From a phage: DNA of 44,954 nt. The translations under genes were made by a program, and so were the position numbers. Each line of letters begins with the position of its first letter. Position 1 is the first letter of the stretch. The notes beneath the pieces were generated by a model, which did not search any database, was not told where the DNA came from, and saw only the letters and a list, made by a program, of their open reading frames with translations. Below are positions 4,157-13,605 of the stretch, piece by piece. The stretch lies in the sequence record OZ503098.1; one strand, given 5' to 3'.

Positions 4157-4601
4157 TCTGCGGGTCCAGTGCGTACAGGGCCGTTTTCTTGTCTCGGGTA
4201 AGTACGCGCTGGATCCGCGCCATCTCATCCTTGCCAAGAGGTCGGCTATCGGAATAGTAGCTGCCGTTCGCACGCCACGCTATCAGCACCAGGTCTTTCC
4301 TGTCGATCTTAGACTGGCGACCCTTCGGTCGCACGTACTCCTCGGCGCGTTTACAATGCTCGCGCAGACTTTCGGCAGTGATGCGGTTTAGCGCCACGCT
4401 GGTGGTGTATCCTGTGCGCTGCATAATCCCCATCAATTCGAAAAGCAGTTCGAAGCGCTCCTCTAACTCCATGCGGCGCTTTTCTTCCGTTTCATAGCTT
4501 GACAGGTAGGTATCTGCCAGCGCGTTCGCACGTTCGGCCTGTTCTCGGGCTTCGAGGCATTGCGCGGCCCAGTATGCTTTTTCTTCTTGTAAAATTTTCA
4601 T
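4143..4601 (-). CDS. Hypothetical protein (152 aa), helical/coiled-coil rich
   Basis: ORF with ATG 4601 and GGAG RBS; directly downstream of a promoter-like element and a leader hairpin. Confidence 0.5.
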   Translation of the reverse strand: MKILQEEKAYWAAQCLEAREQAERANALADTYLSSYETEEKRRMELEERFELLFELMGIMQRTGYTTSVALNRITAESLREHCKRAEEYVRPKGRQSKIDRKDLVLIAWRANGSYYSDSRPLGKDEMARIQRVLTRDKKTALYALDPQNDEE

Positions 4602-4648
4602 CGTGTTGTCTCCAGGTATTAAAAAGGGCGTCCAAACCGGACACCCTT

Positions 4649-4677
4649 AATATAATGCAACCAATCTAATTATGCAA
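4649..4677 (-). promoter_or_regulatory. Sigma70-like promoter built from two direct ATTGGTTGCAT copies (TTGCAT, 17 bp spacer, TATATT); a GC hairpin (4626-4646) lies in the leader
   Basis: Minus-strand reading: ATTGGTTGCATaattagATTGGTTGCATTATATT; the first copy supplies the -35 and the -10 follows the second copy after a 17-nt spacer. Confidence 0.35.
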
Positions 4678-5005
4678 CCAATTTACGAATAAAATTTGGG
4701 TCGCGTGCAACGTCTACCAGATACAGGTTACTAATGCGGTTGCCGTAGTGCCCTGGTGTGCGCTGGCGGCACACAACGGCGAAGCCGGGAGGGATTGTAT
4801 TGCCAGTCTCGATAATCCACGCTACGCGCGCGCCAGATAGCGTCTTGCCGTTGCACTCGATGCGCGTGCCGCCATCGGCAGTGTTGAGGTTGCCAATCTT
4901 ACATCCGGTGGACTTCAGGCGAATGACGCCGGTCTTGCTGTCGTAGGAGAATAACTGGTTAGTCATTGCAACCGAAAAATCAATGGCCTCGAATGTAGTA
5001 TTCAT
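4670..5005 (-). CDS. HNH-like endonuclease (degenerate) / hypothetical protein
   Basis: 111 aa; FSYDSKTG...NGKTLSGARVAWIIETG...GHYGNRISNLYLV follows the layout of small free-standing phage HNH proteins; catalytic residues are not all canonical. Start overlaps the stop of the upstream gene. Confidence 0.4.
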   Translation of the reverse strand: MNTTFEAIDFSVAMTNQLFSYDSKTGVIRLKSTGCKIGNLNTADGGTRIECNGKTLSGARVAWIIETGNTIPPGFAVVCRQRTPGHYGNRISNLYLVDVARDPNFIRKLVA

Positions 5006-8543: not shown

Positions 8544-10835
8544 CTACTTGCGGTAGCGATACATGCAATCGCCTTCGGCGGCAAGAGGGAAGCCTTTCGC
8601 CCAAACAGGCAGGTCGCACATCAGCGCGCATAGCTCCTCGGTCGTGTAGTCGTCAGTATCCGGAACCTCGGTGATCAGTTCATCGTGTACGGACAGTACG
8701 ATCTCATACCCAGCAGCTTCAACGCCTGGCATGGACCATGCGAGAATATCGCGACACAGCGCCTGCACGATGTTTTCCGTCAGTTTGCCGCCGTAGGTAT
8801 ACTGGAAGCCCCACTGGCGCGTCGTCTGATTCTCGCCCTGGTATTTGATGCGGGTGCTGGTGCGCTTCTTGCCGGTGTCTTCGTCAATCTCGGTCGTGAC
8901 AGACAGCGCAATGCCTGGATAACTCATAATACGCCCCGACGGCAACTCAATTTTCAACCACCACCCTGCGGCGTTCGGGTCGTCGCGCTCCTCGTCGAAG
9001 GTTGGGTCATGCTTCGCCTTCGTGCGAACAATCTTAAGCGCTTTCCTGCCATCCGGGCGAACGTTCGCACCCGCCCAGTATGCTTTGCCAGGATTGCGGA
9101 TCGCGCAGAGCACCGCGTCTTCCAGTTCAGCCCAAAATGCTACCGTCTTAGGGTGAGCCTCGCGCCACATACGTTTGATCGCGTCACACGTCAACCACAC
9201 GTTTTTCGGCAGTATGTAAGTTGGGCGCTCGTCTTTCTTGCCAGGCTTCGGCGGGCGCTTGGCTTCGTTAATGCGGGCATACTCATAACCACGTTTCGCC
9301 GCGGCCCAAATATGATCGGGGAATGTGCCCTTCATGACGTCCGCCATCGCATACAGGTCGAGGCCCAGGTTTTTAGCAAACTGCAGGAACGCTGCAACAC
9401 CGCCACCATAGCCCAACCCCAATTCGCACGCCTTACCAATCTGGCGCAAGTCTTTGCAGTTGGCTTTGATGTATTCCGGGTCGAGGCCAAACATCTTACC
9501 GGCAGTTTCACAATAGATATCGCGACCCGCCCTGAACACCATTAGCGCGGTTTTCTCCCCCGCGATCCAGGCGAGGCCACGCCCTTCCACGTTGGAGAAG
9601 TCAGCTACGACAAACTTCTTACCCTTCGCCGGAATAATGCACCCGCGAACAGTCGAGGCCGTTAGCTTCGATATGTCATACGCCCAGTGCGCTGTCCCGC
9701 GTAACAGGGAGTTGATGCCGTTGGTAAGCATGTGCGACCGCACCCAAAACGCGACGTCGCTCTCGCCTTCACGGCGTTTAATCTTCCCTTCGTGGTCGTC
9801 GCTATACTCGCCGCGTGCCAGGTTTTGCGGCTGGAAGCCTTTGCCGGCCCAGCGTAGCGTGCGTTTTGCCCCGCCATACTGGAGACAACCACGGCGGCGA
9901 CCATCGGCAGACAGCCCATTTACGAGCGGATTGTACTTAGTAGATGCCGTTGATGACGCGCCGAGGCGCATCTCGATAAGCACTTTGCCCTCGTCGGGGA
10001 AGTCCGGGTCTTCCAGCAGTTCGTTAAGCGTGGATTTCTGCGCGTTGTGTATTGTGAACGCAGGCGCGAGGTCGCGCAGCGCTGGCAGGAAGTCATTGCC
10101 GGTCAGCTTACCGCCGAAGCGCTCCCATGCTTCTTCCTTCAATTCTTCCTTATGCGCCTGCACCGCTTTGATCGCGGCGTTAGCCAGGTCAACGTCCACA
10201 TAGAAGCCGCGGTCGTTAATCATCTGGTCAATAAGCAGGATTTCATCTTCCTTCGGCGTGTTGCCCCAGTCTGGTATGCGCCAGTAGACTTCACGCATAG
10301 CAACAATATCCAGCGCGGCGTAGCGCAGGAATTTAGCCCACTCCTCGGGGTGCGTCTCGCGCGTATAGCGACGGATTTTGTAGGTCTTAGGGGTTGGCTT
10401 ACAGAATCGTTTGATTAGCGCCTTGCCAGCCTTATCCTTCGCGTGTTCTGCGTCAACGCCCAACACCTGGCACTGCATATCGAGGCTACCTGGCAGCGCG
10501 TGTCGAAAGGCCATAATCATGGTATCTTCGATCTGGCCTACCGGCAGGTCAATGCCCCACTTCTCGCGAATAACCAGGCGGTCAAACAGGAGGCCGTTAG
10601 CCATCACGATTTTTGCTTTCTTGCGGGATACCCGGCGGAGCGCCTTGCGCAGTTCACGCGGCATTGTGGGGGACTCGGTGCAATCCCATGTCTGCACGCG
10701 GCCCTCGTCGATGGCGTATGTGCAAATCATAATCTCGGTAGTTGGGTGTTCCGCGTAGGCGTATGCGCCCACTTTCTTCAGATCCACCCCGCTAAATGTC
10801 TCGGTATCGAGGAAAAGGCGTTCGAAGTCTTTCAT
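8544..10835 (-). CDS. DNA polymerase I family (family A) with 3'-5' exonuclease domain
   Basis: 763 aa; exo motif FLDTETFSG near the N-terminus, motif B-like RQIGKACELGLGYGGG, motif C VHDE (SVHDELITEV). Confidence 0.85.
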   Translation of the reverse strand: MKDFERLFLDTETFSGVDLKKVGAYAYAEHPTTEIMICTYAIDEGRVQTWDCTESPTMPRELRKALRRVSRKKAKIVMANGLLFDRLVIREKWGIDLPVGQIEDTMIMAFRHALPGSLDMQCQVLGVDAEHAKDKAGKALIKRFCKPTPKTYKIRRYTRETHPEEWAKFLRYAALDIVAMREVYWRIPDWGNTPKEDEILLIDQMINDRGFYVDVDLANAAIKAVQAHKEELKEEAWERFGGKLTGNDFLPALRDLAPAFTIHNAQKSTLNELLEDPDFPDEGKVLIEMRLGASSTASTKYNPLVNGLSADGRRRGCLQYGGAKRTLRWAGKGFQPQNLARGEYSDDHEGKIKRREGESDVAFWVRSHMLTNGINSLLRGTAHWAYDISKLTASTVRGCIIPAKGKKFVVADFSNVEGRGLAWIAGEKTALMVFRAGRDIYCETAGKMFGLDPEYIKANCKDLRQIGKACELGLGYGGGVAAFLQFAKNLGLDLYAMADVMKGTFPDHIWAAAKRGYEYARINEAKRPPKPGKKDERPTYILPKNVWLTCDAIKRMWREAHPKTVAFWAELEDAVLCAIRNPGKAYWAGANVRPDGRKALKIVRTKAKHDPTFDEERDDPNAAGWWLKIELPSGRIMSYPGIALSVTTEIDEDTGKKRTSTRIKYQGENQTTRQWGFQYTYGGKLTENIVQALCRDILAWSMPGVEAAGYEIVLSVHDELITEVPDTDDYTTEELCALMCDLPVWAKGFPLAAEGDCMYRYRK

Positions 10836-11002
10836 TGCTTAATCCTCACTACGGCGTCAGCGCTGCCGATCATGGAGAATATACCGTCGGAAAGGGTTAT
10901 CTCCTCGCCGTTGTTGCGAACCTCGGCAACGGTGAAATATTCCCCCAGTAGCTTGGACCATACCCGCATTCCGACTTTTACTTCGCTGGCTTTAATGCGC
11001 AT
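10832..11002 (-). CDS. Small hypothetical protein (56 aa), coupled to the polymerase gene
   Basis: Not in the ORF track (under 60 aa): ATG 11002 with AGGA RBS, translation MRIKASEVKVGMRVWSKLLGEYFTVAEVRNNGEEITLSDGIFSMIGSADAVVRIKQ; its stop overlaps the polymerase ATG. Confidence 0.35.
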   Translation of the reverse strand: MRIKASEVKVGMRVWSKLLGEYFTVAEVRNNGEEITLSDGIFSMIGSADAVVRIKQ

Positions 11003-11017
11003 TTTTCATTGTCCTAT

Positions 11018-11041
11018 TAAAAAGCCCGCATTAAGCGGGCT
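11018..11041 (-). terminator. Rho-independent terminator on the minus strand after the SSB-like gene
   Basis: Minus-strand AGCCCGC-uuaau-GCGGGCU followed by UUUUU, immediately after stop 11061. Confidence 0.55.
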
Positions 11042-11060
11042 TGAATAGTGGGCTTTGCCC

Positions 11061-11849
11061 TTAACGGCGGCGACGTTTGCGTGGCGCTTCGTCTTCGTCG
11101 TCGTCCTCATCTTCGTCATCGCGTGGCTTACGACGTTTGCGAGGTTTTTCATCTTCCTCATCGTCGTCGTCATCGCGGCGCTTGGACTTTTTGGACTTGC
11201 GCGGCTTGTCATCTTCATCATCGTCATCACGACGTTTTGACTTCTTAGCCTTGCGCGGTGCTTCGTCTTCGTCTTCGTCGTCGTTGTCCAGGTCTTCATC
11301 GGAGCAAGAAGAACCACCACCACCGAAGGATTCGCCGTCATCGCGGAAGCGCAGACCCAGCAAGCCAGCACCGAGTCCCTTGCCGTTGGTATTGTTCCAC
11401 GCCCAGATATCGAGTGACACGTTGCAATAACAACCGGAGTAGATCTCCTGGCCTTCGATCTCGTCGCCGTCGATGGTCAGGCCTTGTTCAGTCTGCTTCT
11501 CGCCGAGTGACGTTTGAATGATCGGCTGTTTGAACGATTTAGCGTTGATGTACAACATGCCTTCGAATTCTTCGGTTACTTCATCGCGCTCGTCGCCGTC
11601 GCGAACTGCGCATTCCTTAGAATCCTGGGCGTAGTGGCGGTCCATCCACTTATCGGCATTCTTCTCAGATTTCAGCTTGTCGGTGAGCACTGCGCGCGCT
11701 GCCGCTTCCACTTTGTCCACCTGCGGATCTTCTTTATCCAGAAGAATCACGGCGCGGTATGCTGGTTTTTGTCCATCCTGTTTAGGGGTATCACGTTCCC
11801 AAATTTTCAGGAAACATACGCGCACATTTTTCAGGTTGACTTTAGCCAT
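11061..11849 (-). CDS. Putative single-stranded DNA-binding protein (DUF2815-like) with a long acidic/basic repeat tail
   Basis: N-terminus MAKVNLKNVRVCFLKIWE resembles the DUF2815 phage SSB-like N-terminus; located next to a DUF2800-like nuclease and PolA. C-terminal about 80 aa are three reiterations of DDDDEDD / KPRKSKKSKRR blocks. ATG 11849 has a GAGGAA RBS. Confidence 0.45.
   Translation of the reverse strand: MAKVNLKNVRVCFLKIWERDTPKQDGQKPAYRAVILLDKEDPQVDKVEAAARAVLTDKLKSEKNADKWMDRHYAQDSKECAVRDGDERDEVTEEFEGMLYINAKSFKQPIIQTSLGEKQTEQGLTIDGDEIEGQEIYSGCYCNVSLDIWAWNNTNGKGLGAGLLGLRFRDDGESFGGGGSSCSDEDLDNDDEDEDEAPRKAKKSKRRDDDDEDDKPRKSKKSKRRDDDDDEEDEKPRKRRKPRDDEDEDDDEDEAPRKRRRR
11080..11290. repeat. 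In-frame tandem repeat (about 60-bp units, three copies) encoding the acidic/basic tail of the SSB-like protein
   Basis: Repeated GTC/GTCGTC/ATC and CTT/TTT/GCG runs at DNA level; the protein shows the RRDDDDEDDKPRKSKKSKRRDDDDDEEDEKPRKRRKPRDDEDEDDD periodicity. Confidence 0.5.
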
Positions 11850-11939
11850 TTTCCAATTCCTCATTTTCACATGTATCGGGGTTATTGGAAGCCACCCCGT
11901 TCGGCTTGGTTGCTAATCTACTTGGTTGCGCCTGAGCGG

Positions 11940-12182
11940 TCAAGCATTTTCGTTAAAAAGATTTCGGGTAACGTAGTTGGTAGCGTTCTCGATCCAGCTT
12001 AGCGGCGGTCGGTCGATGTTCTTTTCCACCCAATCGACGGCAACTTCGCTATAGCCGTCATCCAGCCAGCGGGTCGGATGGCGAATCATCCACGCCACCA
12101 TTAACACGCCTTGCACGCAATGCAGGATAAAGCCCAGCGCGCCGAGCAAAAACATCAATAAGATTGCGAATACTTTATTCAT
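11940..12182 (-). CDS. Small membrane protein (80 aa)
   Basis: Two hydrophobic segments (FAILLMFLLGALGFIL and VLMVAWMI); starts 2 nt after the upstream stop. Confidence 0.45.
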   Translation of the reverse strand: MNKVFAILLMFLLGALGFILHCVQGVLMVAWMIRHPTRWLDDGYSEVAVDWVEKNIDRPPLSWIENATNYVTRNLFNENA

Positions 12183-13605
12183 TGCTTAAGTCCTCATCAG
12201 TGGCTTCAGACCACACAGGGCGCGGGTCGTCTATTGGGGCTAATACCGGTTTAGCCGGTGCGCGCGTGATTTTATCACACAGCTTCGCCCACACTTTCGG
12301 TTTTTCGTCCTTCAATACCTTCTCGGCATCCGTAGGGCTGAGCAATGTTTCTTTGTACATCACATCGCGCTTGATCCGGGCCTTCGTGAAGATTTCAATC
12401 ACTTCGCTCTCGTCCGCCCACTTACGGATCCCTTCCTTACCGGCAACCATCTTGAGGCCCAGCGATTCGCCATCGCCCGCCATGACCGCCTTGAATACCG
12501 CGGACTCGATAGCCTTGATGTGCTGGCGCATTGCGTCCAGGCCTTCATAAGCCTTGCGCAGTTCCGCAGCGCTCATAGCACCGGGGGCCGCTTCTTTCTT
12601 ACCACGCTTCGCACGTCGTGCCGCCTTCCTGGCTTCGCGGGCTATATTGCGGTCATGGTTGGCGCATTCTTCCTCTGTCGCAATACTCACGTCGTCGCCC
12701 AGGTCTTCGTCGGTTGCCGTTGGGTGTGTCATCGTGTCGATTGCGGCCTTAGCGCGGGCACTACACTGATCCGCAAATCGGCACCACTGGCACGCATCAA
12801 CGCTGGGGCGGAAGTCGGCACGGGTAAGCCCCTTCTTGCCTCGGGAATACGACTCCAGTGCGGCGATAGCACGCTTGGATGCGAACTTCGCGAATATCTC
12901 CAGCGCTTCTACCGAAATATCCCACTCCGACGCCCCGCCGCAATACGGCTGGAAGATAACCAGTCGCACGGTCGTAATGTCGTACATAGTTTGCAGCTTG
13001 CGCAGCAGGCCGAGCGCGTACAACATAAGCTGTTTGTTCTCTTTCGCCTCGACCTTATGACGCCCGGTCTTCAGGTCGCCAACAATCAGCATGTACGTCC
13101 CATCGGTCTTTTTCATGACCATGACCATATCGGCAGTACCGAACGTTTTAATCCTGTTGCCGTCGATCTCGTAGCCTGAGTGAAGGACGCGGGTCAGATC
13201 GGCGTGCATCTCAAGCTGAACAAACTCCGCCACTTCGATGAGCGGTCGCCAGTGGTCTATGTACGCGTCGCACTGTTTCACCATGTCGTCGTTGACCAGT
13301 ACGCCGCCTTTCGGTGCTTTCGGGTGTGCCTTTACCGGCCCCTTGCCTTCGTTCTCGACGTAGCACCCTTTATACGTCTTCGCGGTTATCAGCTTCTCAC
13401 CGGCTATAATGCGGTTTAGCACCACCTCCGATACGGTGTGCATACTCGTACCGTTAATCGCGGCTTGCCCGGATTCGTTCGGGATATCTTTTTCTACCAC
13501 CAGGGCGGCTGGGCAACCCATCCATTTTTTAGCACCGGATGGCCCGAGTAATGAGTGTTCCGTATTGCTGCCGGATTGCGTCTTACGTTTTGGTTTAATC
13601 GCCAT
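12175..13605 (-). CDS. DUF2800-like PD-(D/E)xK (Cas4/RecB-like) nuclease
   Basis: N-terminal LLGPSGAKKWMGCPA matches the characteristic DUF2800 opening (SxSGAxRWxxCP); C-terminal Cys cluster (CQWCRFADQC); paired with the DUF2815-like gene. Confidence 0.55.
   Translation of the reverse strand: MAIKPKRKTQSGSNTEHSLLGPSGAKKWMGCPAALVVEKDIPNESGQAAINGTSMHTVSEVVLNRIIAGEKLITAKTYKGCYVENEGKGPVKAHPKAPKGGVLVNDDMVKQCDAYIDHWRPLIEVAEFVQLEMHADLTRVLHSGYEIDGNRIKTFGTADMVMVMKKTDGTYMLIVGDLKTGRHKVEAKENKQLMLYALGLLRKLQTMYDITTVRLVIFQPYCGGASEWDISVEALEIFAKFASKRAIAALESYSRGKKGLTRADFRPSVDACQWCRFADQCSARAKAAIDTMTHPTATDEDLGDDVSIATEEECANHDRNIAREARKAARRAKRGKKEAAPGAMSAAELRKAYEGLDAMRQHIKAIESAVFKAVMAGDGESLGLKMVAGKEGIRKWADESEVIEIFTKARIKRDVMYKETLLSPTDAEKVLKDEKPKVWAKLCDKITRAPAKPVLAPIDDPRPVWSEATDEDLSNE

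Follow-up and report, generated by a model that had tools for sequence, protein, structure and literature searches.

The phage DNA record OZ503098.1 (44,954 nucleotides; this whole stretch is referred to as the window) encodes on its minus strand a binding protein for single-stranded DNA (SSB) whose family, fold and general role are already known and an orthologue of which has already been used in experiments. What is new is the architecture of its tail, which combines a conserved basic terminus with copy-variable mixed-charge modules that are under selection. The most unusual feature, overlooked in a preliminary description of this DNA, is that the tail end is basic and not acidic. The window comes from a Dhillonvirus, an HK578/SSL-2009a-like E. 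coli siphophage, and 155 GenBank phage records align with the region, mostly at 90-95% nucleotide identity.

The last 80 residues of the protein read SDEDLDNDDEDEDE-AP-RKAKKSKRR-DDDDEDD-KPRKSKKSKRR-DDDDDEEDE-KPRKRRKPR-DDEDEDDDEDE-AP-RKRRRR and form four acidic and four basic blocks in alternation (Table 1). The preliminary description covered the tail correctly with positions 11061-11290 and recognized the alternation, but it counted the DDDDEDD / KPRKSKKSKRR unit three times where four units are present. Charged residues occupy 66 of the 80 positions (82%; 38 D/E and 28 K/R, net charge -10), and the charge segregation parameter kappa is 0.58, a value reached in none of 2000 random reorderings of these residues (0.11 +/- 0.045). 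The tail is predicted to be intrinsically disordered and strongly charge-segregated. The acidic/hydrophobic C-terminal tip typical of an SSB is missing: the proximal acidic block is present, but the end is APRKRRRR.

The domain preceding the tail matches Pfam family PF10991 (Enc34_ssDNA-bd, formerly DUF2815; 109.3 bits against a cut-off of 26, E=2e-31, residues 10-202 of the open reading frame (ORF) of 269 amino acids (aa) described below) and PHROG 112, 'Gp2.5-like ssDNA binding and annealing protein' (E=3e-57), which is also the annotation of the gene in its GenBank relatives. A sequence search of the PDB returned Enc34 ORF6 and two DUF2815 structures at E of about 1e-11. In an AlphaFold2 (AF2) model made from 72 homologues, the predicted local distance difference test (pLDDT) exceeds 90 over residues 1-170 and falls to about 50-60, without secondary structure, over residues 180-262. 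Foldseek ranked the PDB matches of this model as 4klk (9e-13), 5odl (Enc34 SSB with single-stranded DNA (ssDNA), 4e-12; template modelling score normalised to the target 0.77), 5odj, 4jg2 and then T7 gp2.5 (1je5, 1e-6). No Pfam match to the bacterial SSB family PF00436 was found in the protein, and E. coli SSB structures appeared only at Foldseek E>1. Y137, G139 and C140 are near-invariant in the alignment of the oligonucleotide/oligosaccharide-binding (OB) domain. Taken together, these matches assign the product to the phage replication and recombination SSBs of the T7 gp2.5 / Enc34 ORF6 type, as a predicted ssDNA binder. The earlier SSB-like assignment is thus borne out by Pfam, PHROG, PDB and the AF2 model alike, and the N-terminal domain, whose failure to match SSB-like folds in structure prediction had been named as a refutation, does resemble SSB folds. 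The mechanically called ORF runs over 11061..11870 on the minus strand (269 aa, GTG start at 11870); the ATG at 11849 has GAGGAA just upstream, all close homologues begin there (MAKVNLKN...), and it is the likely true start, giving 262 aa.

Unit number, DNA repeats and selection

Among Dhillonvirus alleles with OB domains 95-99.5% identical in protein sequence, the number of tail units ranges from one to four. Four units are carried by the window and by the sampled loci L001-L004, L010 and L011 (260-262 aa), and also by SECphi18; three by SECphi4 (241 aa), Envy (236 aa), L007 (241 aa) and L008 (240 aa); two by L009 (224 aa), P0003 (218 aa) and P0004 (224 aa); and one by phage welsh (202 aa), the tail of which reads SDEDLDNDDEDEAPRKRRRR. 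In an evenly spaced 60-row sample from the 151 matching GenBank Dhillonvirus records, the span fits four units in about four fifths. None of the Dhillonvirus alleles lacks acidic block 1 or the (A/K)PRKRRRR end.

The welsh allele corresponds to the window sequence minus 180 bp between two exact 18-nucleotide (nt) direct repeats (ACGACGACGAAGACGAAG; positions in Table 1), and once this deletion is modelled the two differ at 3 positions in 69 nt. Single-deletion models for the 2- and 3-unit alleles fitted the window poorly, several small indels being superimposed, and only the welsh junction is clean. Length differences of 3-9 bp are frequent among relatives, and block 1 of the window has an extra Asp-Glu relative to its closest relative, L001. 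Short direct repeats in the GAY/GAR-rich coding blocks are the sites between which recombination or slippage removes modules and presumably also adds them. The preliminary description had predicted that copy number would vary between isolates through repeat-mediated events and had proposed the comparison of orthologues; the finding of 4, 3, 2 and 1 units, with one deletion bounded by an 18-nt direct repeat, agrees with that prediction.

At the DNA level the tail is a variable-number coding tandem repeat. Tandem Repeats Finder reports a period of 54 at 11153-11279 (2.4 copies, 72% matches, score 135), and a repeat search gave two sets, a family of 45-nt repeats spaced 60 nt apart (78% identity) and a pair of 54-nt repeats (72% identity). 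The direct repeats of about 60 bp noted earlier are therefore present, with a period of 54-60 bp, but they are degenerate. The same DNA is repetitive and of low complexity, as would suit a repeat number that was mis-assembled or collapsed, a risk raised in the preliminary description. However, the longest exact non-overlapping repeat is 18 nt and the units are only 72-78% identical, which makes collapse unlikely; the same architecture is present in about 150 independently sequenced genomes, the four-unit tail recurs in many independent assemblies, and the 4-unit cluster (P0001) comprises 537 member sequences. An assembly artefact is extremely improbable.

Rates of substitution were estimated by the Nei-Gojobori method on equal-length four-unit alleles, with small counts and non-independent pairs. 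The ratio of nonsynonymous to synonymous substitutions (dN/dS) is 0.05-0.13 in the tail (dS 0.07-0.52) and 0.03-0.07 in the OB domain (dS 0.17-0.31). The amino-acid pattern of the tail is under purifying selection, while the similarity of dS in the two regions indicates no added nucleotide-level constraint. This combination argues both against a neutral spacer and against an element acting at the DNA level.

The latter would be an origin or a set of iterons formed by the 54-60 bp repeats inside the coding sequence (cf. lambda gene O), or an overlapping gene. The direct repeats do lie within a replication gene, and a 121-aa alternative-frame ORF is open across the tail, two database proteins (P0005 and P0008) being read that way. 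Yet tail dS is as high as OB-domain dS, the units have diverged to the extent given above, the single-unit isolate is viable, cumulative GC skew turns at about 15 kb, away from the tail, and the alternative frame is open merely through codon composition. The origin, iterons and overlapping gene were rejected on the equal dS in tail and OB domain, the 1-unit allele and the GC-skew turn, and we consider a DNA-level element highly improbable.

Two ORFs in other frames or strands extend over the tail, a poly-Ser ORF of 117 aa (11048-11430, plus strand) and an MTKMK-rich ORF of 121 aa (11006-11371, minus strand); both are by-products of GAY/GAR/AAR/CGN codon composition and no evidence of genes. 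In phage vB_EcoS-22664B1 (MZ234008.1, positions 1507-2316; L016) the annotated SSB tail is out of frame (..DDDLGDAMTKMKHRARLRS..), and a different frame holds the usual charged tail unbroken (DDEDEAPRKAKKSKRR...APRKRRRR); P0008 has the same kind of frame shift. The shift in 22664B1 probably stems from an error of 1 nt within the repeat, made in sequencing or assembly. A programmed frameshift, considered on account of P0005 and P0008, was rejected as the 1-nt error is simpler, 22664B1 keeping an intact charged tail in the shifted frame.

The neutral alternative holds that slippage in GAY/GAR and AAR/CGN runs inflates a dispensable low-complexity spacer for which only a tolerable length matters. 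It would accommodate the one to four units of otherwise near-identical viable isolates, the common indels of 3-9 bp and the demonstrated deletion at the 18-nt repeat. It fits less well with a tail dN/dS near that of the folded domain at equal dS, with the strict alternation of blocks in which each unit is near charge-neutral, with the retention of four units by about 80% of the evenly spaced GenBank Dhillonvirus sample, and with the recurrence of the architecture in separate lineages. Neutral expansion is improbable on this evidence, and keeps some weight because one-unit phages are viable.

Tails across the wider family

A first homologue search with the whole protein was word-indexed and thus biased toward similar tails; it gave about 100 clusters with 1-9 acidic/basic units. 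An unbiased scan with the OB domain only, over 1.84 billion representatives, gave 1924 matches, and tails were assessed in 149 of the best 150. The median tail among these is 25 aa long and purely acidic, its tip being either hydrophobic or acidic (DDDIPF-, DDLI- or DDF-like), and two or more basic blocks occur in only 12 of the 150 best matches. By this comparison of sequences the mixed-charge repeat tail is evidently a minority variant in the family, and the preliminary description was right to call the tail atypical. Searches of the accessible literature for alternating acidic/basic SSB tails found no description.

A tblastn search of GenBank phages with the OB domain returned 684 records, mostly Dhillonvirus and Guernseyvirinae (including Salmonella Jerseyvirus and E. 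coli Kagunavirus). A separate search of viral contigs listed at least 13 related loci. The tails of Jerseyvirus T102 (ending ...VDDLEDDEDETPRRERRRNR) and Kagunavirus K1ind2 (ending ...VDDLEDDEEDEAPRRERRRR) share the one-unit architecture of the welsh type, and in these two genera the tip is kept as (T/A)PRRERRR(N)R at 37-40% OB identity. The SSB of Serratia phage Otaku has three units, and that of Salmonella phage PSDA-2 has two basic blocks and an acidic end, YEDDEE. The base state of the clade seems to be an [acidic DDL block]-[xP-basic tip], from which the Dhillonvirus tail would derive by internal amplification of [basic-acidic] modules; the basic tip thus seems to predate the repeats in the Dhillonvirus/Guernseyvirinae clade. 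Among the sampled homologues, a basic C-terminal end is found in 71 of 103 basic-block tails versus 0 of 126 simple tails.

Some database labels in these searches appear not to fit the sequences beneath them. MG065648.1 ('Campylobacter phage A144'), one Acinetobacter-named record and one Salmonella-named record are about 90% identical to the Dhillonvirus region of the window, and mislabelling or contamination is likely for such names of unrelated hosts. P0104, labelled 'Hevea brasiliensis hypothetical protein GH714_044142', matches the SSB of the window and has the precomputed Pfam domain DUF2800; the plant genome assembly was probably contaminated with phage or bacterial DNA.

Several OB lineages outside the Dhillonvirus/Guernseyvirinae clade also have repeat tails, with 3-9 units, and in a neighbour-joining tree of low resolution they are interspersed with plain-tail lineages. 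These distant repeat-tail lineages end in ordinary acidic/hydrophobic tips (DDDDI, DEIPF, DDDEF), and their genes likewise belong to a DUF2800-SSB-polymerase cassette, which there also includes a Prim-Pol/DUF3987 primase-helicase. A unit length of 17-20 aa and a frequent (D/E)-x-P-(R/K) junction recur between lineages. On the metagenome scaffold L025, which encodes the distant homologue P0076, a unit of 51-57 bp encoding DADDEDEAPKRGRSRSR is repeated about six times at positions 4534-4891, the copies being near-identical (about 90% matches); a module of this kind was thus recently expanded in tandem in a different phage lineage. The tree suggests several independent origins of repeat tails.

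Gene neighbourhood and Retron-Eco8

The SSB gene lies between a DUF2800 nuclease gene and a family-A DNA polymerase gene on the same strand (Table 1), an arrangement typical of the replication cassettes of this family; distant homologues sit in it too. The 763-aa polymerase, annotated as DNA polymerase I in relatives but with only a short, weak Pfam match, is a divergent family-A enzyme. The hairpin directly past the SSB stop codon is a probable intrinsic terminator or attenuator separating SSB from the 56-aa ORF and polA; a consensus terminator scan did not call it.

Table 1. Coordinates of the SSB gene, its domain and tail blocks, and neighbouring features in the window
Feature	Position	Strand	Basis or remarks
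Family-A DNA polymerase PolA, 763 aa	8544-10835	-	weak Pfam DNA_pol_A match, residues 393-482, 57.6 bits
56-aa ORF between SSB and PolA genes	10832-11002	-	PHROG 10102 (unknown function); no Pfam match
Hairpin AAGCCCGC-TTAAT-GCGGGCTT followed by T-run	11019..11042	-	sequence; terminator annotated here in some GenBank relatives
SSB gene	11061..11849	-	262 aa; stop codon 11061-11063; ATG start at 11849
Basic C-terminal tip APRKRRRR	11064..11087	-	common to all Dhillonvirus alleles; Jerseyvirus/Kagunavirus form (T/A)PRRERRR(N)R
Acidic block 4, DDEDEDDDEDE	11088..11120	-	holds downstream 18-nt repeat copy (11087-11104)
Basic block 3, KPRKRRKPR	11121..11147	-	tail sequence
Acidic block 3, DDDDDEEDE	11148..11174	-	tail sequence
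Basic block 2, KPRKSKKSKRR	11175..11207	-	tail sequence
Acidic block 2, DDDDEDD	11208..11228	-	tail sequence
AP + basic block 1, RKAKKSKRR	11229..11261	-	tail sequence
Acidic block 1, DEDLDNDDEDEDE	11262..11300	-	in every allele; family-wide DD[L/F]xD motif; upstream 18-nt repeat copy (11267-11284)
Gly/Ser hinge FGGGGSSCS (residues 175-183)	11301..11327	-	sequence; pLDDT drops here
OB-fold ssDNA-binding domain, Enc34/T7 gp2.5 type (residues 1-175)	11325..11849	-	PF10991; AF2; Foldseek
Promoter-like site TTGACC-17-TAGATT upstream of SSB gene	11915..11943	-	overlaps end of upstream 80-aa ORF
DUF2800 PD-(D/E)XK nuclease	12175-13605	-	Pfam; same strand as SSB

SECphi4 and SECphi18 are among the GenBank records matching this region, and SECphi4, SECphi6 and SECphi18 carry orthologues of the SSB in the window, the SECphi4 OB domain being 98% identical. 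The SECphi4 orthologue (QJI52528.1) is the genetically identified SSB trigger of the defence system Retron-Eco8 (bioRxiv 10.1101/2022.08.27.505566; PMC13402713), and T7 gp2.5 triggers Retron-Eco8 likewise (bioRxiv 10.1101/2022.08.27.505566). This speaks for the identification of the protein as an SSB and is indirect evidence for its predicted preference for ssDNA. In that work the 'flexible C-terminal residues' of the SSB were left off display (bioRxiv 10.1101/2022.08.27.505566; PMC13402713). Some Retron-Eco8 escapers in that study have point mutations, or a deletion of 16 bp, in the intergenic stretch that lies upstream of the SSB orthologue (bioRxiv 10.1101/2022.08.27.505566), and these upstream mutations suggest that SSB dosage matters. 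Tail mutations were sought in part of the escaper table; for the SECphi escapers covered, T56P, D25_P29dup and upstream changes were seen, and none in the tail. Table S2 of the same study also places a +C frameshift (E21fs) in the orthologue of the 56-aa ORF in defence-escaper phages of SECphi18 and SECphi6, in rows next to the DNA-polymerase escape mutants (bioRxiv 10.1101/2022.08.27.505566).

Possible roles of the tail and their meaning

The best explanation of the architecture, one to which we give about an even chance, is a gp2.5/Enc34-type SSB whose modular tail would act as a multivalent electrostatic module for autoregulation and cooperativity; among the roles weighed for the tail this is the likeliest. 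The tail comprises a proximal acidic block with the family-wide DD[L/F]xD motif, then [basic block - acidic block] modules, each 17-20 aa long and variable in number (three in the window, 0-3 in sister isolates), and lastly an invariant basic tip, (A/K)PRKRRRR. The proximal acidic block would mimic ssDNA and fill the groove for DNA binding, whether in cis or on the molecule next to it; in doing so it would enforce ssDNA specificity and gate binding. By analogy, it probably acts like the acidic tails of gp2.5, Enc34 ORF6 and T4 gp32. The basic blocks and tip would bring the opposite charge, pairing with acidic blocks or with the unusually acidic OB core of neighbouring SSBs, or touching DNA or other nucleic acid. 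Such a multivalent tail could set SSB-SSB cooperativity or clustering on ssDNA, with the number of units tuning valency and reach.

The tail would then be akin in role to the basic N-terminal and acidic C-terminal segments of T4 gp32 or to the disordered linker in E. coli SSB, and the proposal has precedents in other SSBs. Enc34 ORF6 without its tail binds double-stranded DNA as well as ssDNA, and in four crystal structures (Enc34 ORF6, two DUF2815 proteins and gp2.5) the tail lies in the concave beta-sheet groove of a neighbour, suggesting tail-mediated oligomerisation (PMC5686142). In T4 gp32 the acidic C-domain gates a cationic cleft, and the N-terminal region gives cooperativity through electrostatic contacts (PMC8549804). 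In E. coli SSB it is the linker that drives phase separation as well as non-nearest-neighbour cooperativity (bioRxiv 10.1101/2022.01.17.476650).

The charge of the homologues is balanced over tails of different lengths. Net tail charge is -8.3 +/- 3.4 in plain tails and stays near -6 to -15 at any length, the slope in basic-block tails being -0.09 per residue (0.40 acidic versus 0.31 basic residues for each position). OB domains joined to basic-block tails are more acidic: beyond the Dhillon/Guernsey-like clade their mean net charge is -1.6, versus +1.8 for those with plain tails (Mann-Whitney p=8e-7, a test that ignores kinship), and within the clade the mean is -6.4.

Several points weigh against the electrostatic proposal. 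One-unit isolates (welsh and all examined Jerseyvirus/Kagunavirus SSBs) are viable, so that internal modules are not essential and their benefit may be small. The Retron-Eco8 escape mutations covered above map to the OB domain or promoter and not to the tail. The neighbour-joining tree behind the several independent origins is of low resolution, the distant repeat-tail set comes from the word-based search biased toward tails like that of the window, and the correlation between OB charge and tail type is uncorrected for phylogeny.

The main rival is docking with reversed polarity, in which the PRKRRRR tip, and possibly the basic blocks, would recruit a replisome partner while the internal units form an extensible tether. 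The tip would bind an acidic patch of this partner, for which the phage DNA polymerase, the DUF2800 nuclease, the primase-helicase and the protein of the neighbouring 56-aa ORF are candidates, and it would replace the acidic/hydrophobic one used by gp2.5 and bacterial SSBs. No other part of the tail is as conserved as the tip, which is invariant in Dhillonvirus alleles of 1-4 units and kept in its PRRERRR form in Jerseyvirus and Kagunavirus; the confinement of basic ends to tails with basic blocks in the homologue sample and the replication cassette common to the clade point the same way. The distant repeat tails, by contrast, keep ordinary tips, which indicates that repeats and basic tip are separable features. 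We regard docking as a rather unlikely account of the tail, though it is compatible with the electrostatic proposal and not exclusive of it.

Comparison with known proteins sets out what is shared and what differs. Enc34 ORF6, from an Enterobacter/Hafnia phage, and the other DUF2815 SSBs (5odj/5odl, 4klk, 4jg2) share with the protein of the window the Pfam family, the OB-fold variant, the place beside phage replication genes and a Gly-rich hinge after the fold, followed by a proximal acidic segment with a hydrophobic residue (DDL in the window, DDF/DEF in most members). The OB domains are only about 21-26% identical, however, and the tails of Enc34 ORF6 and of most representatives are acidic throughout, with a tip that is hydrophobic or acidic, whereas the tail of the window has 80 residues, four basic blocks and a basic end. 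T7 gp2.5 (1je5) is a structural homologue (Foldseek E about 1e-6). Its acidic tail ends in Phe and docks on basic patches of polymerase and helicase (refs 14, 20 and 21 in PMC5686142), and the terminus PRKRRRR implies that the docking mode of the SSB in the window differs from that of this acidic-Phe tip. The plain acidic tail of Enc34 ORF6 has D/E at 16 of its last 29 residues (PMC5686142). T4 gp32 combines a basic K/R/S-rich segment for cooperativity with an acidic segment gating the DNA cleft (PMC8549804; Casas-Finet 1992 cited therein). The basic blocks RKAKKSKRR and KPRKSKKSKRR of the window are K/R/S-rich and might be compared with the LAST-motif segment of gp32, but blocks 3 and 4 have no Ser; in gp32 the segments are single-copy and at opposite ends of the protein, whereas here they alternate in variable number in one tail, and the likeness is an analogy with no homology. 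E. coli SSB likewise has a disordered, length-variable, low-complexity linker after its OB domain, but that linker is Gly/Gln/Pro-rich and almost uncharged, the end is DDDIPF, and the protein is a tetramer of a different OB family (PF00436). In eukaryotic nucleolar and chromatin proteins acidic tracts alternate with lysine blocks, and HMGB1 has a basic linker and an acidic tail. These regions resemble the tail in their alternating charge blocks, high segregation and association with nucleic acid, but the proteins are unrelated and the analogy is physical only.

The practical consequences are modest; the family of the gene, its fold and its general role were known before. Many phages that are candidates for therapy belong to Dhillonvirus, Jerseyvirus and Kagunavirus. 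As the orthologue is the trigger sensed by Retron-Eco8, knowing which parts of the protein are constrained is relevant to work on phage defence. SSB tails are a hub for recruiting replication, recombination and repair proteins. An acidic C-terminus has been given as characteristic of all prokaryotic and phage SSBs (PMC5686142; also textbook accounts), and a conserved and widespread basic-tip exception contradicts that generalisation. The basic tip and the copy-variable modules imply either a different logic of replisome docking or a built-in device for self-association. The natural series of 1-, 2-, 3- and 4-unit alleles on near-identical OB domains makes the question of the tail directly testable. 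We tentatively propose, at clearly less than even confidence, that the Dhillonvirus and Guernseyvirinae clade (the 684 GenBank records with an OB relative) swapped the acidic/hydrophobic tip for a polybasic one, and that the modules were amplified repeatedly (1-4 here and up to 9 elsewhere). If this is true, the SSBs of these phages would self-assemble and couple to the replisome in a distinct way, of reversed polarity or self-complementary and possibly condensate-like, with the repeat number as an evolvable tuning knob.

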